Shown here one piece after another: positions 1,889-39,585 of a stretch of DNA of 64,000 nucleotides (positions within the stretch are counted from its first letter, which is position 1; each line of letters opens with the position of its first letter). The stretch is from Minisyncoccota bacterium (lineage in GTDB: Bacteria > Patescibacteriota > Minisyncoccia > Phycocordibacterales > Phycocordibacteraceae): contig JAGORR010000001.1 of NCBI GenBank assembly GCA_018062765.1, positions 356,930-420,929 on the forward strand, in the 5' to 3' direction. Both the position numbers and the translations under genes were made by a program. The notes below the pieces were generated by a model. That model saw only the letters and a list, made by a program, of their open reading frames with translations. It made no database searches and was not told where the DNA came from.

Positions 1889-4360
1889 ATGGCAAAAGCT
1901 AAGGAGCCTGAAGCAGGAGGGGAAGCCGCGCCGGTACAGCGCGTCATACAGCAGTCGATTACGGGCGAGATGCGCACGTCGTATCTCGACTACGCGATGT
2001 CCGTCATTACCTCGCGCGCCCTGCCTGATGTGCGTGATGGCCTCAAGCCGGTGCATCGCCGCATCCTCTTTACGATGCGCGAAGCAGGCCTCACGCCGTC
2101 CGCAAAGTTCCGTAAGTCAGCGACGGTGGTCGGAGACGTGCTCGGTAAGTATCACCCTCATGGCGACGTCGCCGTCTACGACTCCATGGCTAAGATGGCG
2201 CAGGATTTCTCATACCGGTATCCGCTTGTCATGGGTCAGGGAAACTTCGGATCCATCGATGGCGATTCTCCTGCTGCCTACCGTTATACGGAGGCGAAGA
2301 TGTCGCGCCTTTCCGACGAGCTTCTCGCAGACCTCGAGAAGGACACGGTGACCTGGGGCGCCAACTACGACAACACCCGACAGGAACCGAAGGTGCTTCC
2401 GGCGGCGCTCCCGAATCTTCTTTTGAACGGAACGTTGGGCATCGCTGTTGGTATGGCGACCAACATCCCGCCGCATAACCTGAAGGAGGTGGTAGATGCG
2501 ACCGTGCACCTTATCGATGAGCCGGAGGCGACAACCGATGACCTCCTGGGAATCGTGAAGGGTCCTGACTTCCCTTTGGGCGGCATCGCATTCAATCAGG
2601 CAGACATCAAGCACGCGTACGCTAACGGCAAGGGCGGCGTTGTCGTGCGCGGCGAGGCAGAGATTGTCGAGGACAAGAAGGGAAGCCACATCGTGATCAC
2701 TTCTATTCCGTATCGCGTTAACAAGGCAGAACTCATCACGCGCATCGCGGAGTTGGTGCAGGAGAAGAAGCTCGAGGGCGTCCGCGACCTTCGCGATGAG
2801 TCAGCGGCAGACATTCGCGTCGTTGTCGAGCTTAAGGGCACTGCACACCCGCAGGCGGTATTAAACGCTCTCTATAAGCACACGGAATTGGAGTCCACCT
2901 TCCACTACAACATGCTGGCGCTCGTCGACGGTGTGCCGCAGACGCTGTCCTTGAAGGGTATGCTCGAGCACTTCATCGAGCACCGCAGGGAGGTGGTGAA
3001 GCGTCGCACGGAGTACGACCTCCGGAAGGCCGAGGAGCGCGAGCATATCCTCTTGGGACTCTCGAAAGCGCTCGATCATATCGACGAGGTCATCGCCATA
3101 ATCAAGAAATCAGCGGACGTTGCTGCGGCTTCCTTGGCGCTCCAGAAGAAGTTCGCGTTCTCGCAGATACAGGCGGCAGCGATTCTCGAGATGCGCCTTT
3201 CGAAGCTTGCAGGCCTCGAGCGCAAGAAGATTGAGGATGAGCTTGCGGAGGTCCAGGCGCTCATCAAGAAGCTCAAAGAGATTCTCTCCTCCGCGAAGAA
3301 GATTCTCGCGGTGGTGAAGGCCGAGCTCGTCGCTATCGGCGAGAAGTACGGAGATGATCGCCGTACGAAGATCGTGAAGGGCGGAGTGAAGAACATCTCG
3401 GTCGAGGACATGGTTCCCGACGAGGAGAGCGTCTTGGTCATCACCGCAGGCGGCTATGTGAAGCGCACTAACCCATCAGAGTACAAGGCGCAGAAGCGCG
3501 GTGGCGTTGGTGTTATCGATATGTCTACCAAAGAAGAGGATGTGGTGACCCACTTCCTTTCTACTTCGGCGCACTCCGACCTTCTCTTCTTCACGAATCT
3601 CGGCAAGGCGTACCAGACCAAGATGTACGACATCCCAGAAGGAAGGCGCGCAACGAAGGGGAAGTCCATCATGAACTTCCTGCCTTTTGCAGCCGAGGAG
3701 AAGGCGACATCAGTGCTTGCGGTTCCAAAGGGCGCCGAGCGGGATGCCTTGTCTGTGTTCTTCGTGACCGAGCAGGGCGTCGTGAAGAAAGTTGCTGCCA
3801 AGTCATTCGCTGACGTGCGCAAGTCCGGCATCATCGCGATAAACCTCAAGGGCGGAGATAAGCTCGTCTCCGCGCACTTGGCCTCCGAGGGGGATACCAT
3901 TTCCATAGTGACCGCGAAGGGGCAATCGATACGGTTTGCGGCAGACGACGTGCGCGAGATGGGGCGCACGGCGGCGGGTGTGCGCGGCATGTCTGTGAAG
4001 AAGGGAGACTCGGTAGTTTCCGCAGAAGTCATTCCAGCTGCGGACGAGAAGCACGCAGCGCTCCTCGTCGTCATGGCCAAAGGGTATGGCAAACACACAT
4101 CTATCGATGAGTACAAAATTCAGGGACGCGGTGGATCGGGTATTAAGACCGCAGAGGTGACCGGCAAGACTGGTGAGATTATCGGCGCGAAGGTTCTCAC
4201 GGGTGAATTTAAGGAGGATGAAATCGTCGTCATCTCGAAGAAAGGCCAGGTCATCCGCACGAAGGTGGGGGAGATTTCGAGCCTTGGACGCGCGACGCAG
4301 GGGGTACGCATTATGAAGTTGCGAGAGGGAGATGCCATCGCCTCCATGGTGGCGTTGTAA
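1889..4360 (+). CDS. gyrA: DNA gyrase subunit A
   Basis: 823 aa. Hallmarks are [41 protein letters not shown] (catalytic Tyr region) and C-terminal beta-pinwheel repeats. Confidence 0.97.
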
Positions 4361-8011: not shown

Positions 8012-8464
8012 ATGAAACGCACAGCCATCTTCGTTTCTGCACTCTTGCTGACTCTTTCAGCGATGTCCGCCCCAGTGTACGCGCAGGACATGAATCTTGG
8101 GGGTGGAGCGACCGGTAACGCTAGTACCAATCTCGGCGGAGGTCCGTCAGGTAACGGTACCAATCTGGGGGGAGGCTCTCAGGGGTGCGGATTCCTTTTG
8201 AATCCACTCGACAACGAGTGCAATAGCGACATGACGCTCAATGATCTCCTTAGCAAAATATTGAACGTCATCGTCCAGATAGGTGTAGTCGTGCTCACTA
8301 TGATGCTCGTCTACGTTGGTTTTCTCTTTGTCACTGCCCAAGGGAACCCGGAAAATCTTTCCAAGGCCCGGAGCGCACTCATATGGACGATAATCGGCGG
8401 CTTCCTCGTGCTTGGCGCGAGCGTCATTGCAGAGGCGGTTAAGTCGACGGTTGAAGCGCTCTGA
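8012..8464 (+). CDS. VirB2/TrbC-like two-helix pilin paralogue 1 (signal peptide, NLGGG x3 repeats)
   Basis: Signal peptide ...APVYA/QD. C-terminal TM1-loop-TM2 module VVLTMMLVYVGFLFVTAQGNPENLSKARSALIWTIIGGFLVLGASVI. Confidence 0.7.
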   Translation: MKRTAIFVSALLLTLSAMSAPVYAQDMNLGGGATGNASTNLGGGPSGNGTNLGGGSQGCGFLLNPLDNECNSDMTLNDLLSKILNVIVQIGVVVLTMMLVYVGFLFVTAQGNPENLSKARSALIWTIIGGFLVLGASVIAEAVKSTVEAL

Positions 8465-8465
8465 T

Positions 8466-8738
8466 ATGGACGGCGAGGAGGTTATCGTCGTGGGACAGAA
8501 AGGCACCTTCGCCTCGATGGTGTACAAGTTCACCGGCTTCATTGACTCCAGTATTATCCCGTTATTGTTTGCGGCCGCATTCCTCGCGATGCTGGTGGGC
8601 ATATTTCGCTATTTCATGATTCCGGGCGAGGAGAATTTGCAGAAGGGTCGCCAGTTTTTGCTGTGGGGCGGTATCGCTTTTGTGTTCATGTTCCTTATCT
8701 GGGGGCTCGTAAACCTACTCCTCGATTCGGTATTCTAG
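8466..8738 (+). CDS. VirB2/TrbC-like pilin paralogue 2 (no signal peptide)
   Basis: ORF track 8412..8738, with the start at ATG 8466. Module is FLAMLVGIFRYFMIPGEENLQKGRQFLLWGGIAFVFMFLIWGLVNLLL. Confidence 0.65.
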   Translation: MDGEEVIVVGQKGTFASMVYKFTGFIDSSIIPLLFAAAFLAMLVGIFRYFMIPGEENLQKGRQFLLWGGIAFVFMFLIWGLVNLLLDSVF

Positions 8739-8786
8739 CTGTTTATAAGTACACATAGCCTGGCTCAGTACTGATACGCTAAACGT

Positions 8787-9215
8787 ATGAAAAAGACATT
8801 CTCCGCCCTATTGTTTTCACTAGCGCTCATGTTCACACTTACACCGTCCATTGCCTTTGCGCAGGGCCAGCAGCAGCCGCAACCTGATCAGCAGGGCACG
8901 GGTGAGTCACAGCCGAGCGAGCTCGAGCTTCGTATCGGATGGCTTCTCGACTTCGTCGATGGGTACGTCATTCCGCTCATATTCGGACTCGCATTCGTCG
9001 TATTCATCTGGTTCGTGTTCGTGTACTTCATCCTTGGCGGAGCTGAGGAAGAGCAGCGCGCTAAAGGAAAGCAGTTCCTGTTGTGGAGTCTTATTGGGTT
9101 CGTACTCATGCTCTCCTTGTGGGGTATCGTGAACCTGCTTCAGAACACCATAGGATTCGATAATAACTCCAAGCCGTGTCTGCCGGTGTTCGAACAGGAC
9201 AACGAAGACTGCTAA
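8787..9215 (+). CDS. VirB2/TrbC-like pilin paralogue 3
   Basis: Signal peptide ...SIAFA/QG. Module is FVVFIWFVFVYFILGGAEEEQRAKGKQFLLWSLIGFVLMLSLWGIVNLLQ. Confidence 0.7.
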   Translation: MKKTFSALLFSLALMFTLTPSIAFAQGQQQPQPDQQGTGESQPSELELRIGWLLDFVDGYVIPLIFGLAFVVFIWFVFVYFILGGAEEEQRAKGKQFLLWSLIGFVLMLSLWGIVNLLQNTIGFDNNSKPCLPVFEQDNEDC

Positions 9216-9299
9216 TGCGGTTGTCCCCACAGTGCACCCCATACGATTGACTTCGCGCCAAAGCCGCTTACCCTTAGTACATATCCGCTTACCACTGCT

Positions 9300-9689
9300 A
9301 TGAAGAAAATTCTCTTGCTCGTCGCTCTGTTCACCATCCCGGCCATTGCGTTCGCGCAGTTTGGCGAAGGCGGTAATAATCAGGACCTTGGCGATCTCGG
9401 TCAGGAGTTCACTGACATCATCAATAACATCGCGGTTCCGCTTATCTTCGCGCTCGCGTTCGTCATCTTTATTTGGGGAGTATTCAAGTACTTCATTCTT
9501 GGTGGCGGAGACGAGGAGGCTCGCGAGAAAGGTCGCGACCTCATGATTTGGGGACTTCTGGGATTCTTCTTCATGATTTCAGTCTGGGGACTCGTGAATC
9601 TCGTCGTGAACACCATCGACCTGGAGCAAAGCGGAGCACCGGACGAAAATGACTTGCCGGACGCTCCGGGAGTCAGGGACTCGAACTAA
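9300..9689 (+). CDS. VirB2/TrbC-like pilin paralogue 4
   Basis: Signal peptide ...AIAFA/QF. Module is FVIFIWGVFKYFILGGGDEEAREKGRDLMIWGLLGFFFMISVWGLVNLVV. Confidence 0.7.
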   Translation: MKKILLLVALFTIPAIAFAQFGEGGNNQDLGDLGQEFTDIINNIAVPLIFALAFVIFIWGVFKYFILGGGDEEAREKGRDLMIWGLLGFFFMISVWGLVNLVVNTIDLEQSGAPDENDLPDAPGVRDSN

Positions 9690-9704
9690 CTCATAGTGTA
9701 GGCG

Positions 9705-9729
9705 AAAAGACCCGCTCGGCGGGTCTTTT
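9705..9729 (+). terminator. intrinsic terminator
   Basis: aaaaGACCCGC-tcg-GCGGGTC-TTTT. Confidence 0.7.
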
Positions 9730-9783
9730 GCTATCCCCGATTAGTACGTGCCATAGATGAGTGCGGATATATACTGAACAGTA

Positions 9784-10053
9784 ATGAACGAAAGAGTAGA
9801 GATACCGCTTCTTGAGGGCATCAAAACGCAGATAGTGAATCCCATCATCACGCTTCTAGCGCTTGGAGCATTTGTAATGTTTCTTTGGGGTCTCGTCGTA
9901 TTCATATGGAATGCCGGGGATGCGGAGGCGCAGTCGACGGGGAAGCGCGTCATGCTGTGGGGTGTCATTGGGCTTGTTGTCATATTCGGTGCGTGGAGCA
10001 TTGTGGAGCTTATCGGAAGCACGATAGGGGTAGACCCAAATCAGTACCGGTAA
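9784..10053 (+). CDS. VirB2/TrbC-like pilin paralogue 5
   Basis: 89 aa. Module is GAFVMFLWGLVVFIWNAGDAEAQSTGKRVMLWGVIGLVVIFGAWSIVELIG. Confidence 0.65.
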   Translation: MNERVEIPLLEGIKTQIVNPIITLLALGAFVMFLWGLVVFIWNAGDAEAQSTGKRVMLWGVIGLVVIFGAWSIVELIGSTIGVDPNQYR

Positions 10054-10621: not shown

Positions 10622-11860
10622 TCAGATGTTCTTGGTTGCATTATGGCCGACAGCGGCGTCGAGAAGGCTGTTGCCGCTCGACTGCACGATGACCTTTTTT
10701 GCAGTCCCGCGCCGGGCTTGTACCCGGTCGAGAGCCTCGGTCAAGGTCATGATAGACTCCTTTGTTTTTTCAGAAGACTTTTCGGACGCCGCGACGAGCT
10801 TGAGCGCTTGCTCGAGTTCGGCATCGCTGTCCTTATCCTCGGCACGCTTCTCTGCGTCTTCCGCTGCGGCCTTGTTCTGTGCCAGTAGCATCACAGCATC
10901 TGGAGTGAGACGCGCGACGTTGAATCGCGTGATCTTAACACCAAGCTGCCGTACGTCACCGACACCGTTCGCAACCGCAGTGTTGAGGAAGAACTCAATC
11001 TCCTTCTCAACCTCGCGTTGCGCGGCGCGCTGCTCCTTCGCTTCGAGGCCCGCGCCTGCCTCAAGGAAGTAGGCTACGGGGTCGTCGATCGCTTTAAGCG
11101 TTCCGTCCTGAGTCTTCGCCTCGTAGTTCGTGGCAGTGATACCGAGACGTTTGATCTGCGCTTCGTCGACTTTCCCGCTTGCGTCGCGAGGAAGCTCAGC
11201 CATCTTGGTGTTCGCGATCATCGTGATGAGCTGAACGGATAGTGGAAGCTTGAGGAACAGGAACTGCTCCCAGGTATGGAAGAGTGCTGCACCACGCATG
11301 GCCTCCTTCGTCATGCCTTCAACGATGCTTCGGACGCCGTTCATGAGGCCGCTCTTGATCAACTCCTTCATGCGCTGAGGCCCGATCGGTCTTCCGCTGT
11401 CGTCCTTGGCTTCATGGTCTGGCTCGATCGTAAGATCGACCTTCACATCCACGGAACCGCCCGCGGTCTGTTTGCCCTCCTTGTCGGTCGCCTTGCAGGT
11501 GACCGAGAATGGGGCAAATTCGACATCGAGACGGGTTACGTCAATTGGTATCAGGCCGATTTCAAACGGCAGGTAGTCTGCCGTCATGTAGTCGCCTGGT
11601 CCGACGAGGATGTCCTGCGGTTCGCCATAGCAAGTCACCAAGGCGACATGCTGCGGCTTGGCAGAGACGTTCGTTTTCCAGCCCATCTTCACCATGAGGA
11701 TTCCGAGAGTGGCAAAGCTGACACCCATGAGGTAGTTCCCGTCGACTCGGTAGGCGAGAAACGCACAGAGCGCGCCGACCGCCATAAGTATGACGGCGAT
11801 GCGCCACAACTTCGAACTGAAGTCAGGACCGACTATGTATTGGCTTACAAGGTTCTTCAT
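10622..11860 (-). CDS. SPFH/band-7 (flotillin/prohibitin-like) membrane protein with coiled-coil tail
   Basis: 412 aa. Two N-terminal TM helices. SPFH-like core (HVALVTCYGEPQDILVGPGDYM..LPFEIGLIPIDVTRLDVEF). Ala/Glu/Lys-rich C-terminal coiled coil. Confidence 0.7.
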   Translation of the reverse strand: MKNLVSQYIVGPDFSSKLWRIAVILMAVGALCAFLAYRVDGNYLMGVSFATLGILMVKMGWKTNVSAKPQHVALVTCYGEPQDILVGPGDYMTADYLPFEIGLIPIDVTRLDVEFAPFSVTCKATDKEGKQTAGGSVDVKVDLTIEPDHEAKDDSGRPIGPQRMKELIKSGLMNGVRSIVEGMTKEAMRGAALFHTWEQFLFLKLPLSVQLITMIANTKMAELPRDASGKVDEAQIKRLGITATNYEAKTQDGTLKAIDDPVAYFLEAGAGLEAKEQRAAQREVEKEIEFFLNTAVANGVGDVRQLGVKITRFNVARLTPDAVMLLAQNKAAAEDAEKRAEDKDSDAELEQALKLVAASEKSSEKTKESIMTLTEALDRVQARRGTAKKVIVQSSGNSLLDAAVGHNATKNI

Positions 11861-11898
11861 TCCTATGACCCTCCTGGTCGTTAAGGTTCCCTGTATGT

Positions 11899-11927
11899 AT
11901 TATACACCACAGCCCACACAATGTCAA
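11899..11927 (-). promoter_or_regulatory. consensus sigma70 promoter of the SPFH operon (TTGACA-17 nt-TATAAT)
   Basis: Minus strand reads cTTGACAttgtgtgggctgtggtgTATAATac. RBS AGGAGGG lies before ATG 11860. Confidence 0.7.
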
Positions 11928-11974
11928 GCGTCAAATCAAGAAAAGAGCTCATAGGTACGGGCTCGTTTGTCGAT

Positions 11975-12128
11975 TGCTGGGGGAGGGCTTGGTCAGGCGC
12001 TCATTCGTCGCCGTCGCTCCTCACTCCGCCTGACCACCCTCGCGTGACAGACTTTGCTAAGTCTGTAGACCGCGCTCGGTTTCAAGTCTCCACCCCATGC
12101 CATTGCGGCTGCTTGCGCAGCCTTTATG
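11975..12128 (-). repeat. tRNA-trailer structured element, copy A (distal to tRNA-Leu-TAG)
   Basis: In tRNA orientation the order is:
- hairpin GGCTGC-gcaa-GCAGCC
- GGAGACTTGAA, antisense to the tRNA T-arm
- ACAGACTT-AGCA-AAGTCTGT
- GGTCAGGCG..(GAGTGAGG..GACG loop)..CGCCTGACC
- CAAGCCCTCCCCCAGCA, mimicking the tRNA 3' end. Confidence 0.8.
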
Positions 12129-12282
12129 TGCTGGGGAGGGCTTGGCGAAGCGTCTGCCGATCGTCGTCACTCCCGGCTCCGCTCGGCCCTGCTCGCACGA
12201 CACGGCGTGCTCGCCGCGTAGACCGTGCTTGCGTTCAAGTCTCCACCCATGCCTCTGCGCCAGGCTTGTGTCTGGTTACGTG
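12129..12282 (-). repeat. tRNA-trailer structured element, copy B (adjacent to tRNA-Leu-TAG)
   Basis: Also 154 nt. In tRNA orientation the order is:
- GCCT-ggcgcag-AGGC
- GGAGACTTGAAC
- ACGCGGCG-AGCA-CGCCGTGT
- GCCG-gGAGTGACGACGat-CGGC
- CCAAGCCCTCCCCAGCA. Confidence 0.8.
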
Positions 12283-12364
12283 TGCTGGGGAGGAGACTTG
12301 AACTCCTAACCCGTGAGGGACATGGTCCTAAGCCATGCGCGTATACCAATTCCGCCACCCCAGC
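12283..12364 (-). tRNA. tRNA-Leu (anticodon TAG), class II long variable arm
   Basis: Hand-folded. Acceptor GCTGGGG/CCCCAGC. Anticodon arm CATGG-cTTAGga-CCATG. T arm AGGAG-TTCAAGT-CTCCT. Discriminator A. No encoded CCA. Confidence 0.9.
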
Positions 12365-12416
12365 GTCCTTCACAGAATACTACGATTTGTTATATTGCGT
12401 TCTGTCGCGCCTATAG

Positions 12417-12489
12417 CTCAGTTGGTAGAGCAGATCCCTCTTAAGGATAAGGTCCCTGGTTCGAGCCCAGGTAGGCGCACTAACACGAA
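12417..12489 (+). tRNA. tRNA-Lys (anticodon CTT)
   Basis: Hand-folded. Acceptor GCGCCTA/TAGGCGC. Anticodon loop CTCTTAA. T arm CCTGG-TTCGAGC-CCAGG. Confidence 0.9.
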
Positions 12490-12639
12490 AAAGTCCTGGT
12501 CTGCACCAGGACTTTTCGGTTAGTGCGCGACGGAACCATGTTTTGCGAGCGCGCAAAACCGGTGAGCCAGGGTCGTAGCCTGAAGTGAGTGTCGACGAGC
12601 TTCAGGGCTATGACCACGTGCGAGGCACAGCGATGTTTT
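12490..12639 (+). repeat. tRNA-trailer structured element after tRNA-Lys
   Basis: Order:
- terminator-like H1 AAAAGTCCTGGT-ctgc-ACCAGGACTTTT
- TGCGCgaCGGAACCA (antisense-like to the tRNA 3' end)
- GTTTTGCG-AGCG-CGCAAAAC
- GGTCGTAGCCTGAAG-tgAGTGTCGACGag-CTTCAGGGCTATGACC
- ..GAGGCACA (compare tRNA end TAGGCGCA). Confidence 0.65.
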
Positions 12640-12725
12640 GTCTGCAGATAAAACCACGAGCCGGGATAGCGGAATTTCATGAATAATGACTAATGAAATA
12701 TCCGTGACCACAAATTGCAAAACGT

Positions 12726-13562
12726 TTAGATACCAGCGTACTTTCTGAATCGTCCAATTAGGTCAGTCGTGAGGGTCCCTGGCTTACCGCTGCCTACCTT
12801 ACGGTCATCGATGCGGATGACCGGCACTACGTCCTTGAACGACGAGGTGATAAACACCTCATCAGCGTTCCAAACGTCGTCCATGCTGACTGCGCGCTCT
12901 TCGGTCTTGTAACCGGCTTCAGCCGCAAGCTCTAGGATGACCTTCCTGGTAATGCCATGCAATACGCCCTCCTTCGCCGTGATAACCACTTTGTCCTTCA
13001 CGATGAACGCGTTTGATGTCGAGCACTCGAGCATGTTGCCGTTTGCGTGGTACAGGATTTCGAGTGCGTTCGCGGCTCGTCGCTTAGGCTGTAGCATCAC
13101 CGCATTTATGTAATTGATGGTCTTGTACTCCGGCATCATGCGCTGGTGCTCGCTCGTGATGAGAGAAACGCCATCAGTAAACACTTCGGGCGCAAGCACA
13201 AATGCCGGCTCGCAATTTATGAAGAATGTCTCGCGTCCAGGAACGTGCTCAAGCCCTCCGAGCGCTTCTCCGCCAGTAAGAACGACACGTACGGTTGCGC
13301 GCGTATCTGGTGAGTTGCGCTTGGCGATCTCTATCAGGGCAGCCTCAAACGCGTCGCGCTCGATAGGAATGGTAAGGGAGAGGGCAGCCGCTGACTTCAG
13401 TAACCGCTGCCAGTGGTCTTCGAAGCGAAACGGCTTTCCGCCAATGACCGTAATGCCCTCATAGACACCGTAGGAGCGTAGGACGCCGAGATCGAGGATG
13501 CCCACCTTCGCCTCCTGAAGCGGAAGAAATGCCCCATTAAGAAAGGCGACAGGCTCGTTCAT
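12726..13562 (-). CDS. class IV aminotransferase (branched-chain / D-amino-acid aminotransferase family)
   Basis: ORF track 12726..13700 runs into tRNA-Leu, so the start is taken at ATG 13562 (MNEPVAFLNG). Family pattern includes EYKTINY (PLP lysine region) and FITSSFKDVVPV. Confidence 0.85.
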   Translation of the reverse strand: MNEPVAFLNGAFLPLQEAKVGILDLGVLRSYGVYEGITVIGGKPFRFEDHWQRLLKSAAALSLTIPIERDAFEAALIEIAKRNSPDTRATVRVVLTGGEALGGLEHVPGRETFFINCEPAFVLAPEVFTDGVSLITSEHQRMMPEYKTINYINAVMLQPKRRAANALEILYHANGNMLECSTSNAFIVKDKVVITAKEGVLHGITRKVILELAAEAGYKTEERAVSMDDVWNADEVFITSSFKDVVPVIRIDDRKVGSGKPGTLTTDLIGRFRKYAGI

Positions 13563-13625
13563 CGGAGGATTATAACAGCAGTAATGTGTTATGGGTTTCT
13601 CGATATATGCTAGAACTAGTCGTAC

Positions 13626-13708
13626 GCCAGGGTGATGGAACGGTAGACATAGGGGACTTAAAATCCCCAGCTGTAACAAGCGTGTGGGTTCGACTCCCAC
13701 CCCTGGTA
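13626..13708 (+). tRNA. tRNA-Leu (anticodon TAA)
   Basis: Hand-folded. Acceptor GCCAGGG/CCCTGGT. Anticodon arm GGGGA-cTTAAaa-TCCCC. Long variable arm. T arm GTGGG-TTCGACT-CCCAC. Confidence 0.9.
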
Positions 13709-13738
13709 CTCGGTAGGGCGTGATAGGATTCTGCCATC

Positions 13739-13810
13739 GGCCCGATGGTGAAGTGGTAACACGGGGGACTGCAAATCCTCTATGCGCGGGTTCAATTCCC
13801 GCTCGGGCCT
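13739..13810 (+). tRNA. tRNA-Cys (anticodon GCA)
   Basis: Hand-folded. Acceptor GGCCCGA/TCGGGCC. Anticodon loop CTGCAAA. T arm GCGGG-TTCAATT-CCCGC. Confidence 0.9.
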
Positions 13811-13950
13811 CAAATTGGACGCGCAGCGTCTAATAGCGGGAATTGAAGGCCGTAGCTATATCGTGCGAGCACGCACGATTGCGAGGCGGGGTCACGAATA
13901 AGGTCTGCTCGACGGAGCAGACCTTATTCGTGACCAGTACCGCTCTGTCT
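13811..13950 (+). repeat. tRNA-trailer structured element after tRNA-Cys
   Basis: Order:
- GACG-cgcag-CGTC
- AGCGGGAATTGAA, an exact antisense of the tRNA-Cys segment TTCAATTCCCGCT
- ATCGTGCG-AGCA-CGCACGAT
- 20-bp hairpin GTCACGAATAAGGTCTGCTC-GACG-GAGCAGACCTTATTCGTGAC
- CAGTACCGCTCTGTCT (compare tRNA CAATTCCCGCTCGGGCCT). Confidence 0.75.
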
Positions 13951-14303
13951 TAAATTTGGTTCCCTAACTCATCCATTCGCTGACGGTTCTTCTCCCCAGC
14001 ATCGTGCTCAAACTTTACAGACGGAATGGCGCGCAGACGGGACTTCTGCTTGAGGAAGGTCCGGAATTCATCGCGGTTGCGATTTAAGAAATCTAGCGCG
14101 TAGGGAAGGGCGGTGTCAGGGAACACGGTGACGAACAAGGTGGCGCGGTCACCTCTTGAGGAGAGTACTGCGCGTGTCACCGTTATAAGCGATGTGTTAT
14201 TCGATTCGCGCGCAATAAACTCAGCCGCTAGATGCGCTACCTGCTCCTCGGCGCGCTCGCCGTGATGATTTGCCTTGCCGCCCCCGGTAAATGGAAGGCT
14301 CAT
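13950..14303 (-). CDS. rbfA: ribosome-binding factor A
   Basis: 117 aa. RbfA-like core (AEFIARESNNTSLITVTRAVLSSRGDRATLFVTVFPD). Overlaps the infB stop by 4 nt, matching the conserved infB-rbfA order. Confidence 0.85.
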   Translation of the reverse strand: MSLPFTGGGKANHHGERAEEQVAHLAAEFIARESNNTSLITVTRAVLSSRGDRATLFVTVFPDTALPYALDFLNRNRDEFRTFLKQKSRLRAIPSVKFEHDAGEKNRQRMDELGNQI

Positions 14304-22138: not shown

Positions 22139-22239
22139 TGCGGCTCCCAGGTGGTCACAAATACTTCCGCGTCGACACTTGGAAGTTTCGCGACCCCGCC
22201 AAAAAGGAAAAACCTGGAGCAGTCCAGGTTTTTCCTTTT
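22139..22239 (-). repeat. tRNA-trailer structured element after tRNA-Trp (short form, no AGCA hairpin)
   Basis: In tRNA orientation the order is:
- GGAAAAACCTGGA-ctgc-TCCAGGTTTTTCC then TTTTT
- TGGCGGGG (antisense to tRNA end GCCCGCCA)
- GGTC..CTTCC-aAGTGTCGACGc-GGAAG..GACC
- ACCTGGGAGCCGCA (compare tRNA CTACTGGGCCCGCCA). Confidence 0.65.
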
Positions 22240-22313
22240 TGGCGGGCCCAGTAGGAATCGGACCTACGCTAACGGTTTTGGAGACCGTTGTACTACCACT
22301 ATACGATGGACCC
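22240..22313 (-). tRNA. tRNA-Trp (anticodon CCA), CCA end encoded
   Basis: Hand-folded. Acceptor GGGTCCA/TGGGCCC. Anticodon arm ACGGT-cTCCAaa-ACCGT. T arm GTAGG-TCCGATT-CCTAC. Confidence 0.88.
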
Positions 22314-22411: not shown

Positions 22412-23368
22412 ATGCGCCGCTTGGCACTTTACCTCCTCGCAGCTTCTCTCATACCGCTTGCCGCGGCGGCACAAGGGCTTCCGTCAGGCTCAATCATCCC
22501 GGACCTCGATGAGGGAGATCAGAACCTGCGCACGTGCGCTGCAGGTTGGAAGGCGGTTCTCATAATATCGGGAGGGTTCCTAGAGCTCGCAATTTACATC
22601 GCGATGCTTATCGCCGTTCTCGTTATCGTCTATGCAGGGATTATATTCCTGTTTAATGCGACAAACCCCGAGAACCTGTCGAAAGGGAAAAAGATTCTTG
22701 GAAACGCGGCGATTGGTCTTCTTATTACGCTTTGCGCATGGCTACTTGTGAATACGGTGCTCACAAGCCTGGGCGCAGGAGACATCGCAAGCCGCACAAG
22801 CGTCATAGGTTCAGGCGGCTCGCTCTGTATCACGATACAACCTCCGCAATCTCAAATACCAACCAGTCAGGAAGTAGCTGCCGGTTTGCCACTGGCACCA
22901 CCTCCTCGAGGTACCGGCTCGTGTGACCCGATTGCTGTGCGCGCAGCCGCAGCGGCCGGTGGGTACCAAATCTCGGAGCGAGAGGCGAACACATTTGCCT
23001 GCCTTGCAGGTCCCGAGAGCTCGTGCGGCGCAAATGTCGATGGTGCGACGACGCCTTCTGGGCAGCGTACGAGTGCAGCGGGTCCGTGGCAGAACATTCT
23101 TGGTTTTAAGGATAAGTGCCACTCACTCAACATCCCCGCCTGTGGCAACTTGCAGTGTCACCAGGCATTTTCAGGCGGAGTGGAGAAGTCTGATCCGGCC
23201 TCGAGAGCTCTCGCTGCCAAGTGTCGTCAGGCACTTGCAAACCTTACGTGCGCTGCCGCCGCAGCCGTGTGTCTTAATAACGCGAGCGGAAACGACTTCA
23301 GCGACTGGACTGCGGATTCGCGCAGCTCGAAACAGAAGAAGTGTATTCGCGACCATGCGGGGCTCTAG
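22412..23368 (+). CDS. pilin-like N-domain fused to a Cys-rich lytic-transglycosylase-like (SLT-like) domain
   Basis: 318 aa. Signal peptide. N-module is IAVLVIVYAGIIFLFNATNPENLSKGKKILGNAAIGLLITLCAWLLVNTVL. The C-domain has SLT-like motif order: PESS, GPWQNIL, LNNASGNDFSDW. Confidence 0.6.
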   Translation: MRRLALYLLAASLIPLAAAAQGLPSGSIIPDLDEGDQNLRTCAAGWKAVLIISGGFLELAIYIAMLIAVLVIVYAGIIFLFNATNPENLSKGKKILGNAAIGLLITLCAWLLVNTVLTSLGAGDIASRTSVIGSGGSLCITIQPPQSQIPTSQEVAAGLPLAPPPRGTGSCDPIAVRAAAAAGGYQISEREANTFACLAGPESSCGANVDGATTPSGQRTSAAGPWQNILGFKDKCHSLNIPACGNLQCHQAFSGGVEKSDPASRALAAKCRQALANLTCAAAAAVCLNNASGNDFSDWTADSRSSKQKKCIRDHAGL

Positions 23369-23383
23369 CGCTATACTTTACCT

Positions 23384-23926
23384 ATGAGCCGAACAGCCTT
23401 TTGGATACTCGCACTCGCATCGGTTGGGCTTTTGGCTGCTGGCACACTTTTCTATCTCAATTTGAATCCTGAGCCGGAAGCTCCTCCCATGGTAACTCCT
23501 GACCCATTTGGGAGTACTAACGATGGCGTAATTATTACGGCCGTGGGCGGGGAGGACATACGCGCTCGTGACTTCGTTAACGATGGCGAGACTGAACCTG
23601 ATCCCGGTAATCCCGGAACGTACTTCCTTGCCGGTTATTTCGGCTACTGCGACGGGGACGAGGAGTGTGAACCTATTGCAACAAGCGACTTCAACATTAA
23701 GTACGATAGCAAGATTGATGCCTTCACGATCGGTCTTGCCACCGAGCCGATAGGTGAAGTTAGGAAGCGTGCAGAAGCATTTCTAATGAAGAAGCTCGGG
23801 ATTGGGGAAAATGATATGTGTGCACTCAATTACTATGTCGGCACTTCGTATTGGGTAAATGAAACTTACTCGGGAGGTAATCTTGGGTGGAGTTTCTGTC
23901 CCGGCTCCATAGCACTTCCTGACTAG
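23384..23926 (+). CDS. hypothetical membrane-anchored secreted protein
   Basis: 180 aa. N-terminal TM helix. Acidic, Cys-containing ectodomain. Sits between the two pilin-hydrolase fusion genes. Confidence 0.55.
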   Translation: MSRTAFWILALASVGLLAAGTLFYLNLNPEPEAPPMVTPDPFGSTNDGVIITAVGGEDIRARDFVNDGETEPDPGNPGTYFLAGYFGYCDGDEECEPIATSDFNIKYDSKIDAFTIGLATEPIGEVRKRAEAFLMKKLGIGENDMCALNYYVGTSYWVNETYSGGNLGWSFCPGSIALPD

Positions 23927-23927
23927 T

Positions 23928-24839
23928 ATGCGACGTACTACGACATTGCTCCTGCTTCTCCCGTTGCTACTTACAGCTATGCCCGCGCATGCGCAGTTCA
24001 CCGAGGGCTGGACCATCGTCCCGGCAGCGTGCCATTCGTGCCCTGCGGCTTGGGTTTGCGTACTTGAGATGCTCAACAATCTGGTGACGCTCATCATGAC
24101 CATCGCGGTCTTAATCGTCGTACTCGTCATCACCTACGCCGGCATCCTGCTTGTGTTTACTGCGACGAACCCCGAGAACAAGAGCAAAGCAAAAAGCATG
24201 CTTATTAATGCTGCGGTAGGTCTCGTCATCGCTCTTGGCGCGTGGCTCATCATCGATAAGGTCCTCGAGTCTTTGGGTGCGGGCGGTATAGACGAGACAA
24301 CGCGCGTTATTGGTACCGGTGGCAGCGCATGTGTTGTTGCTCAGGATCCGATCACTGAGCCGCCTGAGGGAACGGATCCATCGCCTATTACTCCCGGTCC
24401 TGGCGGTGGAGGCAGCGGCGCTAATTGCCCGGTCCCGGCGGCGTCCGGGATGGTGGCATTCCCTGCGGAGGCTACAAGCGGTGAAACTGAATACGCAACA
24501 CCGAGTACGGTCGAGAACTTCCTTGCGATGCGCGCCGCAGCGCTTGCCGATGGAATTGACATTAAGGTGACTGACGGATATCGGTCCGAAGCCGAACAGG
24601 TTCAGTTATGGTATCGCTACAATCAGGACACGAGCCAAGTCGCAAGGCCGTGTACGCTAGGTGGCAGCGGTTCAAACCACAACTCAGGTGTCGCTCTGGA
24701 CCTCACCGTCGGCTGTAGAAAGACAGATAGTTCCTGTGATAGCGCCCAATACCGATGGCTTAAAGCAAATGGTTCTCAGTGGGGCTTCAACAACAATTTG
24801 CCTACCGATACGGTGCACTGGTCACCATCGGGTCGCTAG
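23928..24839 (+). CDS. pilin-like N-domain fused to a peptidase M15 (VanY-type D,D-carboxypeptidase) domain
   Basis: 303 aa. Signal peptide. N-module is IAVLIVVLVITYAGILLVFTATNPENKSKAKSMLINAAVGLVIALGAWLIIDKVL. M15 motifs are VTDGYRSEAEQ, SNHNSGVALDL (SxHxxGxAxD) and DTVHW. Confidence 0.75.
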   Translation: MRRTTTLLLLLPLLLTAMPAHAQFTEGWTIVPAACHSCPAAWVCVLEMLNNLVTLIMTIAVLIVVLVITYAGILLVFTATNPENKSKAKSMLINAAVGLVIALGAWLIIDKVLESLGAGGIDETTRVIGTGGSACVVAQDPITEPPEGTDPSPITPGPGGGGSGANCPVPAASGMVAFPAEATSGETEYATPSTVENFLAMRAAALADGIDIKVTDGYRSEAEQVQLWYRYNQDTSQVARPCTLGGSGSNHNSGVALDLTVGCRKTDSSCDSAQYRWLKANGSQWGFNNNLPTDTVHWSPSGR

Positions 24840-28115: not shown

Positions 28116-28196
28116 GCCGGGGTGGCGAAATGGTAAACGCAGAGGATTCAAAACCCTCCGCCGCAAGGCTTGAGAGTTCAAGTCTCTCCCCCGGCA
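28116..28196 (+). tRNA. tRNA-Leu (anticodon CAA)
   Basis: Hand-folded. Acceptor GCCGGGG/CCCCGGC. Anticodon loop TTCAAAA with an A-C mismatch closing the stem. Long variable arm. T arm GAGAG-TTCAAGT-CTCTC. Confidence 0.88.
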
Positions 28197-28362
28197 CAAA
28201 GCGCGAAGCGCGCATGGTCGGGGAGTACCCTGCCTGCGCAGGGTACGTGAGAGACTTGAACGCCGGAGCGATGATTCGTCAGCAGACGAATCCGCGAGGC
28301 AAGGCTATGAAAATTCTCGAGTGACGGCGAGAGAATTATTCCTGGCCAAGCCTTCCCCGGCA
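28197..28362 (+). repeat. tRNA-trailer structured element, copy 1 after tRNA-Leu-CAA
   Basis: Order:
- TACCCTG-cctgcg-CAGGGTA
- GAGAGACTTGAAC, a 13-nt exact antisense of the tRNA T-arm
- GATTCGTC-AGCA-GACGAATC
- AATTCTC-gAGTGACGGCg-GAGAATT
- CCAAGCCTTCCCCGGCA (mimic). Confidence 0.8.
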
Positions 28363-28509
28363 CATGAAGCACGCGCAGCGTGCGAAGGGCTCGTGGGTGG
28401 GACTTGAACGCCGGAGCGATGCTTCATCAGCAGATGAAGCCGTGAGCTGGGGTCGCGGAAAATGCCATGTGACGACATGGCATTTATTCGCGACCAAGCC
28501 ACCCCGGCA
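28363..28509 (+). repeat. tRNA-trailer structured element, copy 2 after tRNA-Leu-CAA
   Basis: Order:
- GCACG-cgcag-CGTGC
- GGGTGGGACTTGAAC
- GCTTCATC-AGCA-GATGAAGC
- GGTCGCG..AAATGCCATGT-GACG-ACATGGCATTT..CGCGACC
- AAGCCACCCCGGCA. Confidence 0.8.
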
Positions 28510-39443: not shown

Positions 39444-39538
39444 CCAACTTGAGCGAGGTTCTTGCGTCCGAGACGCATTGAACTAAGCCAAGACTCCATT
39501 CAGAAAAGGCATACCGGCTGAGAGTCGCATTCAGAACG

Positions 39539-39562
39539 AAAAACCGCCCTAGGGCGGTTTTT
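39539..39562 (+). terminator. intrinsic terminator
   Basis: AAAAACCGCCC-tag-GGCGGTTTTT. Confidence 0.75.
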
Positions 39563-39585
39563 CGTTTGCGCGTTATAATTGGATT

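Follow-up and report, generated by a model that had tools for sequence, protein, structure and literature searches.

Tandem two-hairpin modules behind tRNA-Lys(CTT) of a Minisyncoccota bacterium belong to a conserved tRNA-trailer family

The stretch of DNA considered here (64 kb in all; "the window") is a chromosome segment of a Minisyncoccota bacterium, which belongs to the Candidate Phyla Radiation (CPR)/Patescibacteria, and it carries the housekeeping genes for GyrA, TopA, IF2, ClpB, ParB, RelA/SpoT, SerRS, UvrABC, DprA, Tgt, and MiaA. One of its eight tRNA genes (ARAGORN), that for tRNA-Lys(CTT), is preceded by a promoter-like TTCACA-16-TATATT (12369–12396) and ends ...GGCGCA-C, that is, with the discriminator A and C74, the CCA not being encoded. 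The 245-nt trailer between this gene and a convergent aminotransferase gene consists of a perfect 24-bp palindrome and two tandem modules of ∼90 nt, each made up of two hairpins termed c and d (Table 1). The aminotransferase shares 100% identity with a protein from an NCBI metagenome-assembled genome labelled Ca. Pacebacteria, whereas the nearest species representative (81% identity) bears the label Ca. Saccharibacteria. Compared with dinucleotide shuffles, the predicted fold of the region 12470–12725 is exceptionally stable (z = −7.97; none of 200 shuffles was equally good). The element is a member of a conserved tRNA-trailer family for which Rfam has no model, and the module, which is found behind the majority of tRNA genes here and in a clade of relatives, is under structural selection.

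As a regular-expression search for such units was too noisy, a covariance model (R1) was used in its place. It was constructed from 12 aligned units of the other window trailers and of related loci (given L numbers in the following), with a hand-drawn structure and with the Lys copy excluded. When run on the window with filters off, R1 recovered eight units, all in tRNA trailers and all on the strand of the tRNA, whereas the best match outside the trailers reached 13 bits and antisense echoes of the units reached up to 15 bits. The initial annotation of the Lys trailer, made from the sequence without database searches, had assigned it to the same element family as the other trailers and had named beforehand a score below noise as the refuting outcome; the model that had not seen this copy gave it 71.9 bits, against noise of 15 bits at most. 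A metagenome scan with the tRNA-Lys 3′ end yielded 71 loci, in 14 of which R1 added 20 units; more units were found in one IMG/VR contig and in L093. The contigs derive from ERZ27275549, SRR11088469, and SRR5278607. Within the seed of 12 units, 94% of the helix cells are paired, and compensatory changes affect 24 of 30 pairs (none of 500 shuffles was as good, and slid controls paired at ∼35%). Across 29 units from 16 sources, again 94% of the helix cells pair, and compensatory changes occur at 29 of the 30 pairs. Because of this covariation, the structure must be regarded as kept by selection.

The linkage to tRNA genes is nearly complete: 27 of 28 units lie 36–67 nt behind a same-strand tRNA (unit 1 of the Lys trailer begins its core 47 nt past tRNA-Lys), or in tandem behind such a unit. 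The exception, in L032, stands behind a displaced copy of the tRNA-Trp 3′ end, past a 600-bp cassette with an open reading frame (ORF). The tRNAs bearing units are Leu-CAA, Leu-TAG, Leu-TAA, Lys-CTT, Lys-TTT, Cys, Trp, Arg, and Ser. Rfam searches of the window and five other locus sets, at gathering as well as permissive thresholds, returned tRNAs and noise only, and literature searches brought up no account of tRNA-trailer elements for CPR bacteria.

In the family, the c domain comprises a 3-bp helix, a GGA//GA internal loop, a second 3-bp helix, and an 8-bp hairpin with an AGCR tetraloop; the d hairpin has the base GGUCG...UGACC with a conserved G.U pair, a 12-nt loop (GAGYGWCGRCGA), and the end GACCA. 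Unit 1 of the Lys trailer conforms to this plan. Its d hairpin fits the family pattern, including loop and end, and its c domain, with one mismatch in the GAC/GCC helix, has the GGA//GA internal loop and, in the model alignment, an ACC (12535–12537) that pairs with GGU (12561–12563), which is a compensated variant of the GCG/CGC of the family. Three hairpins, H1, H2, and H3, had been placed by the initial annotation exactly where they are found here. Its reading of the AGCG loop of H2 as a variant tetraloop is correct, AGCG being present in two of the 29 units (the second is the Lys unit of L033) and AGCA in 15, and the 10 nt of the H3 loop, AGTGTCGACG, that it had recognized in the tRNA-Trp trailer do occur in the hairpin there.

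Its interpretation of the intervening segments fared less well. CGGAACCA, described as tRNA antisense with an internal deletion, falls in the alignment on the 5′ strand of the c domain, which is conserved (family form GCC-GGA-GCG-AU); its GAACCA part is not significant as T-arm antisense (shuffle p ∼0.09), and only the GTGCGC complements the tRNA end. GAGGCACA (12622–12629), taken for a terminal mimic of the tRNA 3′ end, turned out to be the first 8 nt of the core of unit 2, and its comparison with TAGGCGCA gave a shuffle p of ∼0.6, so that unit 1 has no sense copy of the tRNA end. Unit 2 as a whole had been missed, as had the palindrome that extends H1 into the tRNA. The stretch at the start of unit 2 (12618–12634) matches the 5′ start of the Lys unit of L036 (GTGCGAGGCGCAGCKAT, a Lys-type start) in 15 of 17 bases. 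By-eye comparison with hammerhead, K-turn, box C/D, T-box, and the group II 5′ GUGYG identified no motif that fits, and the group II-like GTGCG with which Lys-type units start is simply the complement of the tRNA-Lys end. Among the 244 tRNAs of the fetched loci, which sample few tRNA species, none has an acceptor stem matching the base of the d hairpin (GGUCRCG/YGUGACC).

The palindrome preceding unit 1, here called the clamp, opens in its left arm with the last 6 nt of tRNA-Lys and closes in its right arm with GTGCGC (12523–12528), which complements the tRNA end GCGCAC and, together with GTTA/TAAC, extends H1 to 24 bp. The same design in unrelated sequence is present in 11 other Lys, Trp, and Arg trailers; all 12 clamps are 17–26 bp long, and each takes in the last 4–8 nt of the preceding tRNA or of its 3′-end copy. 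What the clamps complement is the genomic trailer (for Lys, GCGCAC-TAAC), as opposed to the mature ...ACCA end, so that it is the precursor or the DNA that would be involved in any pairing. Energetically, clamp and acceptor stem are nearly equivalent (−55.5 versus −53.3 kcal/mol). Within the window, hairpins of at least 6 bp with a CTGC loop are confined to tRNA trailers (Lys, Leu-CAA, and Trp).

H1 had been called terminator-like, and in its stem and general look it is: A tract, G+C-rich stem, tetraloop, and U tract follow each other as in an intrinsic (bidirectional) terminator, and the arrangement is symmetric. However, an intrinsic terminator would have its G+C-rich hairpin followed at once by at least five U in eight positions, and the terminator scan made no call at 12489–12516 on either strand. 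Only four U follow the G+C stem, and these are paired with the A tract inside a stem that runs 24 bp into the tRNA; also, nearby ordinary terminators do not have the CTGC loop. By its length, the clamp would suit a double-strand RNase as substrate better than it would serve as an ordinary terminator.

The full design of a unit is clearest in Leu, Ser, and Cys units and in the Lys and Trp units of L093. Its order is X (the tRNA 3′ end), a palindromic spacer or H1, X′a (antisense of the acceptor 3′ strand including discriminator and C74), a CTGC-loop hairpin, X′b (antisense to the T loop and to the 3′ strand of the T stem, with its end invariably at position 54), c, d, and X″, which repeats the tRNA in sense from T-loop position 56 through C74 and is present in Leu, Cys, and Trp units. 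X′ overall covers tRNA positions 74 to 54; for Leu, Cys, and Ser units, its duplex with the upstream tRNA 3′ end reaches z-scores between −3 and −5.5. In the window, each of the two Leu-TAG units (11989–12234) copies the tRNA 3′ end twice, over 16–17 nt in antisense and over 17 nt in sense, and the 26-bp palindrome of the tRNA-Trp unit includes CCCGCCA and TGGCGGG; the orthologue of the latter unit in L093 retains the c hairpin. In the Lys unit of L093, both antisense parts are complete. X″ is near-perfect over 18–19 nt in L066, L014, and L093 and decayed in others. As for Lys unit 1 of the window, X′ consists only of the 6 nt GTGCGC plus 4 nt of trailer, with the T-arm portion missing, and this particular unit is not flanked by a direct repeat of the tRNA 3′ end. 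T-arm antisense and 3′-end mimic, chance resemblances in the Lys copy of the window, are thus real in other members of the family. The Lys units of the window are trimmed members, and the Lys copy itself appears to be an old one, in which X′ was reduced to 6 nt and X″ was lost.

Table 1. Features of the tRNA-Lys(CTT) trailer and the other units of the window.
Feature	Position	Strand	Details
tRNA-Lys(CTT) gene	12407–12480	+	ARAGORN; Rfam tRNA 67.7 bits
Clamp palindrome, GCGCAC-TAAC-(A)-CGAAAAAGTCCTGGT / CTGC / ACCAGGACTTTTCG-GTTA-GTGCGC	12475–12528	+	RNAfold: 24 pairs, 0 G.U
H1, AAAAGTCCTGGT-CTGC-ACCAGGACTTTT	12489–12516	+	12-bp core, CTGC tetraloop at 12501–12504; tip of the 24-bp palindrome
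Unit 1, core	12527–12617	+	R1 (this copy left out) 71.9 bits, E 2.7e-13; ends GACCAC
Unit 1, c domain	12529–12568	+	GAC / GGA loop / ACC / H2 / GGU / GA / GCC (model alignment)
Unit 1, H2, GTTTTGCG-AGCG-CGCAAAAC	12540–12559	+	8-bp hairpin, loop AGCG
Unit 1, d hairpin (H3)	12571–12615	+	loop GAGTGTCGACGA at 12587–12598
Unit 2	12618–12711	+	GTGC + core 12622–12711; R1 68.4 bits, E 1.5e-12 (copy not in seed); ends GACCAC
Unit 2, c hairpin, GTTTTGTC-TGCA-GATAAAAC	12635–12654	+	model alignment
Unit 2, d hairpin	12665–12709	+	degenerate loop GAATAATGACTA
Tandem units behind tRNA-Leu(TAG) (12282–12364, −)	cores 12142–12234, 11989–12081	−	R1 73.6, 65 bits
Unit core behind tRNA-Cys (13739–13811)	13847–13937	+	R1 85.7 bits; antisense AGCGGGAATTGAA at 13835–13847
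Reduced unit behind tRNA-Trp	22151–22245	−	R1 37.8 bits, E 4e-6; d hairpin loop AAGTGTCGACGC, c hairpin missing
Tandem units behind tRNA-Leu(CAA) (28116–28197)	cores 28260–28349, 28408–28497	+	R1 95.3, 87.5 bits

Whether the module is selected as RNA or as DNA can be addressed by the kind of mismatch tolerated in its helices. In the c and d helices, the seed has 22 G.U against 3 A.C and the set of 29 units has 48 against 9, with one G.U pair conserved in 22 of the 29; the excess of G.U places the structure on the tRNA-sense single strand. Arrays are found on both strands of the window, the GC skew of which is monotonic (one replichore), and a replication-linked DNA strand is therefore less likely than RNA. 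At the orthologous Leu-TAG locus, the tRNA is separated from the same conserved terminator and promoter by zero (L093), one (L001), or two (window) units, and a canonical terminator is found 3′ of the Trp array of L093; the units are therefore located within tRNA transcription units. Judged by these patterns of substitution and placement, the c/d module is shown to be a single-strand structure selected on the tRNA-sense strand, within tRNA transcription units, and read-through of H1, or processing, is likelier than a role at the DNA level. The contrary argument of the initial annotation, that a terminating H1 would speak for a DNA-level role, finds no support in the 48 G.U versus 9 A.C on the tRNA-sense strand and the units that elsewhere precede a conserved terminator.

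The closest parallel is RtT of Escherichia coli, which was reportedly described by Bosl and Kersten in 1991 as excised from the tyrT transcript, with a possible role in the stringent response. Direct inspection of the tyrT locus found three 178-nt repeats behind tyrV and one more between tyrT and tyrV. Each RtT unit contains GGGGAAGGAT, which is antisense to the 3′ strand of T stem and acceptor; ∼90 nt of hairpins come next, and then the 3′ end of tRNA-Tyr is repeated perfectly, in sense, over 19 nt from the T loop onward. Rfam family RF00391 (RtT) pairs antisense and sense copies as a closing helix, and the annotated RttR RNA ends at the CCA of the mimic. RtT is cut from the tyrT transcript and possibly acts in the stringent response (bioRxiv 10.1101/2024.07.17.603846). 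Tandem same-strand units behind a tRNA, composed of an antisense copy, ∼90 nt of hairpins, and a sense copy from T loop to 3′ terminus, are likewise what characterizes the CPR family overall, a likeness of architecture that is weak in the Lys copy of the window. Furthermore, RtT and CPR units share a local motif of the GAGCGA..GCGA type, GTGAGGAGCGA(C)GGCGACGAAT (z 5.8).

The two differ in several respects. The CPR family serves many tRNAs (three Leu, two Lys, Cys, Trp, Arg, and Ser), each with cognate copies, and its c/d core is a defined one in which the loops are conserved. A perfect 17–26-bp palindrome including the tRNA end is often present, as is an extra CTGC-loop hairpin that splits the antisense copy, neither of which RtT has; RtT, on the other hand, overlaps a small ORF (tpr). 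With RF00391 (threshold 45 bits; 133–137 bits for E. coli as the positive control), there was no match in the window at the gathering score, none with E ≤ 10 over 11600–14100, and none with E ≤ 1 in four other loci. By analogy, the CPR units are therefore best filed as working like RtT, presumably, while standing outside RF00391. RNA derived from a tRNA trailer also has a precedent in 3′ETS-leuZ, the 3′ external transcribed spacer of a tRNA operon that acts as a small RNA in E. coli. This RNA, too, starts from a tRNA promoter and is freed by tRNA 3′ processing, but it is a single, short, unstructured sponge without tRNA-end copies, repeats, or a conserved hairpin core.

The reading that best accounts for these observations, to which we assign a probability of roughly 0.55, is that the trailer is a structured RNA resembling RtT, co-transcribed and bearing a clamp or processing stem where it adjoins the tRNA, and that the arrays evolve by recombination at tRNA-3′-end repeats. 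The unit would be transcribed together with its tRNA, in the Lys and Trp type via read-through of H1. The long, perfect stem that clamps the 3′ end of the precursor would be a double-strand cleavage site and/or a leaky terminator, and cleavage or termination at this point would separate the tRNA from the modules, which may be freed as small stable RNAs, like RtT. A factor could make contact at the conserved G.U pair and at the loops AGCR and GAGYGWCGRCGA, which are likewise conserved. Recombination at the repeated tRNA-3′-end segments would lead to units being gained, lost, and exchanged.

Traces of such exchange are found among the relatives, which differ in presence and copy number of the units. 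A chimeric unit in L070 (2886–3032, minus strand) has an antisense copy matching the upstream tRNA-Leu(CAA) and a sense copy, GCGACCCTTGGTAC, matching the 3′ end of tRNA-Leu(TAA), and its d hairpin is identical to that of the Leu-TAA unit of L056, which indicates recombination between units of different tRNAs. In L093 (1883–2250), a CCA-less tRNA-Trp is followed by a full unit and then by a perfect copy of the last 16–18 nt of the tRNA, including the CCA; this displaced end carries on with the H1 and unit that are found directly on the tRNA-Trp of the window. The nearest neighbour of a core resides in the same genome for only one of 29 units and is often found behind a different tRNA in another genome. 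Taken together, copy-number variation, L093, L070, and the neighbour pattern suggest old residents that are gained, lost, and exchanged at repeated tRNA-end segments.

Several points weigh against the co-transcribed RNA. Transcription, read-through, and processing are all inferred. The zero to two copies at one orthologous locus show that the unit is dispensable for the maturation of its tRNA, and it is the terminator-like H1 that precedes the Lys and Trp units. The pooled clamp stems, with 273 Watson–Crick pairs and two G.U (2 of 275), are unlike c and d in this respect, and their near-absence of G.U points to a two-strand, that is, DNA-level, constraint or else to a demand for a perfect duplex. 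The closing helix between X′ and X″ was not significant in a crude duplex-energy test against shuffles (z ∼ −1), and homology to RF00391 is not detectable, neither model picking up the other family. Lastly, the old tRNA-Trp 3′ end of L093 looks as if displaced by a duplicative insertion, unless the window has undergone the reciprocal deletion, and core subtypes are common to different tRNAs across genomes while the flanks stay tRNA-specific, which fits mobile DNA equally well.

The units may be regarded as miniature, non-autonomous mobile DNA cassettes, which a recombinase would move in trans and which would integrate into tRNA genes between the T loop and the 3′ end; a hairpin of X/X′ or X′/X″ would rebuild the double-stranded target in the folded strand, and c and d would be protein-binding arms. 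This is reminiscent of the attachment sites attP(+) of CTXphi and attC of integrons, in which imperfect inverted repeats around a loop, here of ∼90 nt, could rebuild a duplex copy of the target, and in which structure is conserved above sequence and the strand is specific. Besides the core subtypes with local flanks, the unit of L093 between CCA-less tRNA-Trp body and displaced CCA-bearing 3′ end, the variable copy number, and the perfectly Watson–Crick H1 palindromes, direct repeats taken from the tRNA 3′ end and measuring up to 19 nt flank some units, with sharp limits at T loop and C74 (L066 and L014), and the 600-bp ORF cassette of L032 occupies the same site. The latter (270–925) lies between tRNA-Trp and a degenerate displaced 3′-end copy, which is followed by H1 and unit. 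It contains a TTGACA-like promoter, a 155-aa ORF without assigned function, and a terminator, and it was inserted at a tRNA-end site used by the units as well. The close strains L090–L092 are identical to the window and hence do not reveal insertion boundaries.

However, neither the scanned ORFs of the 64-kb window (integrase, transposase, reverse transcriptase [RT], HUH, Nop-domain, or DEDD recombinase) nor the 20-kb L093 locus (integrase, transposase, HUH, or RT) contained a gene of the kinds given, and CPR units have no recognized Xer/dif or R/L boxes. With a same-genome nearest neighbour for only one of 29 units, a recent burst of transposition is not apparent. The arrays are unbiased relative to the replication strand, and the conserved G.U pair and the 5:1 excess of G.U over A.C are typical of RNA; these, and the place inside tRNA operons, set the CPR units apart from attP(+) and attC. 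As the target varies per tRNA, a structure-reading recombinase of no known kind would be needed. Two pattern scans of IMG/VR for a phage attP origin gave nothing in the first instance, and 14 chance matches and one real one in the second. This sole contig filed as viral (L078; UViG_3300033463_005745) has at least three tandem units (2850–3319), the flanks of which are antisense and sense to an unseen tRNA (GTAGGGATTTGAA ... AAATCCCTCCCC), and its neighbouring genes, for an epimerase, a cytidine deaminase, and a GDSL lipase, are cellular; a phage attP origin was rejected, no phage or plasmid copy having been found. Overall, mobile cassettes are considered a rather improbable explanation. As for more specific assignments to known mobile DNA, IS200/IS605 or repetitive extragenic palindromes with their RAYT transposase would call for an HUH (Y1) transposase gene in the genome and a strand bias relative to replication; within the 64 kb covered, there is no such gene, and arrays occupy both strands. 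A tRNA-targeting integrative element is not supported, since the scanned ORFs of the window include no integrase or transposase and the Lys unit has no direct repeat; other units do have repeats.

Could the trailer be a mere stack of stable hairpins, acting, after a tRNA gene under heavy transcription, as a strong or bidirectional transcription stop and insulator toward the convergent gene without a specific RNA product? The symmetric A tract, G+C stem, and U tract of H1, the convergence of tRNA-Lys on the aminotransferase gene, and the pronounced stability of the whole trailer (z = −7.97) are in keeping with it. Still, a roadblock needs neither conserved loops nor an internal loop nor G.U pairs; ordinary terminators in the same genomes have other loops and sit after the arrays; Leu and Cys units lack U tracts; and the tRNA-specific antisense and sense copies would be left unexplained, which makes this explanation quite unlikely.

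Far less probable still is that the unit RNA is a guide, X′ and X″ of which would pair with both strands of the tRNA gene 3′ end and direct a recombinase or nuclease, as do IS110 bridge RNAs and the guides used in tandem interspaced guide RNA (TIGR)-Tas systems. Although one antisense and one sense segment to the same DNA target flank a structured RNA, and TIGR-Tas systems have been reported from CPR bacteria (PMC12045711), X′ and X″ span one and the same set of bases and pair with one another, whereas TIGR and IS110 guides address adjacent, non-overlapping halves. A TIGR array, defined by 36-nt units with two non-overlapping spacers of 9–12 nt flanked by CCA and UG boxes and by a Nop-domain Tas gene, was rejected: CPR units measure ∼95–150 nt, X′ and X″ overlap fully, the CCA and UG boxes are missing, and no Nop-domain protein is encoded in the window. 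Likewise, units of ∼150 nt with segments of 6–22 nt contrast with 36-nt units and 9-nt spacers, the box pattern is missing around both segments, a Nop-domain or DEDD recombinase gene is missing from the window, and X″ is wholly missing from Lys units. That the units are non-functional debris, such as decayed attachment-site (att) scars or pseudo-tRNA fragments from past integrations, is hardly credible, since degenerate or missing X″ in several units (including the Lys copy of the window) and truncated units (L023 and the Lys unit of L001) contrast with conserved loops and compensatory changes at 29 of 30 helix pairs across 29 units, a structure that debris would lose.

The surroundings of the arrays have some features of their own. 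All eight tRNA genes of the window encode a C directly after the discriminator base, with a full CCA in Trp and Gln only, and the sense copies X″ likewise stop at the C following the discriminator base. The order of the Cys, Leu-TAA, Lys, and Leu-TAG tRNA genes is stable across relatives (window 12282–13811 versus L001, L007, L014, L028, L032, L033, L036, L042, L056, L066, and L093), while single tRNA genes of this cluster flip orientation in place; in L001, Lys, Leu-TAA, and Cys are all inverted relative to the window. The tRNA-Gln trailer (39447–39570) is without a c/d core; it has a degenerate antisense remnant, GGCTGAGAGTCGCA, at 39516–39529, followed by a canonical palindromic terminator with a CTAG loop. 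Directly 3′ of the Leu-TAG array, a perfect TTGACA-17-TATAAT promoter (11899–11927, minus strand) precedes a 412-aa ORF without Pfam match (10622–11860, minus strand), and this promoter as well as the terminator before it are kept in both L001 and L093. GCGAAGC and GCGCAGC are motifs that form unusually stable DNA hairpins; such mini-hairpin motifs recur in spacers, c hairpins, and d loops (window 28200–28212; units of L056, L033, and L070; E. coli RtT, L094). At 8012–10053 and 22412–24839, the window has runs of small genes for pilins of the type IV secretion system (PF18895) and a pilin-VanY fusion, which are typical of CPR/Patescibacteria.

In a clade with genomes of ∼1 Mb, ∼1.2 kb of the 64-kb window are taken up by eight copies of one structured module behind five of the eight tRNA genes. 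The only parallel described, E. coli RtT, is known only behind tRNA-Tyr and has been without a clear function for 35 years. A second family of unrelated sequence and the same build, serving many tRNAs with cognate copies, suggests a general, overlooked relationship between tRNA genes and their trailers. It is conceivable, though rather doubtful, that RtT-like units form an old, widespread class of modules linked to tRNAs, which reproduce the 3′ end of their host tRNA in inverted and direct orientation and use the copies as a cis switch or for their own duplicative insertion, with the enterobacterial RtT as an outlying member. If so, X′ would clamp the 3′ strand of the tRNA or pair with the decoy X″, thereby coupling maturation to a factor at the c and d loops; alternatively, the copies would serve the duplicative insertion of the units at tRNA T loops. 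R1 can be used to annotate those tRNA flanks of CPR genomes that would otherwise be read as terminators or att scars, and the CPR family gives the biology of RtT a comparative handle.

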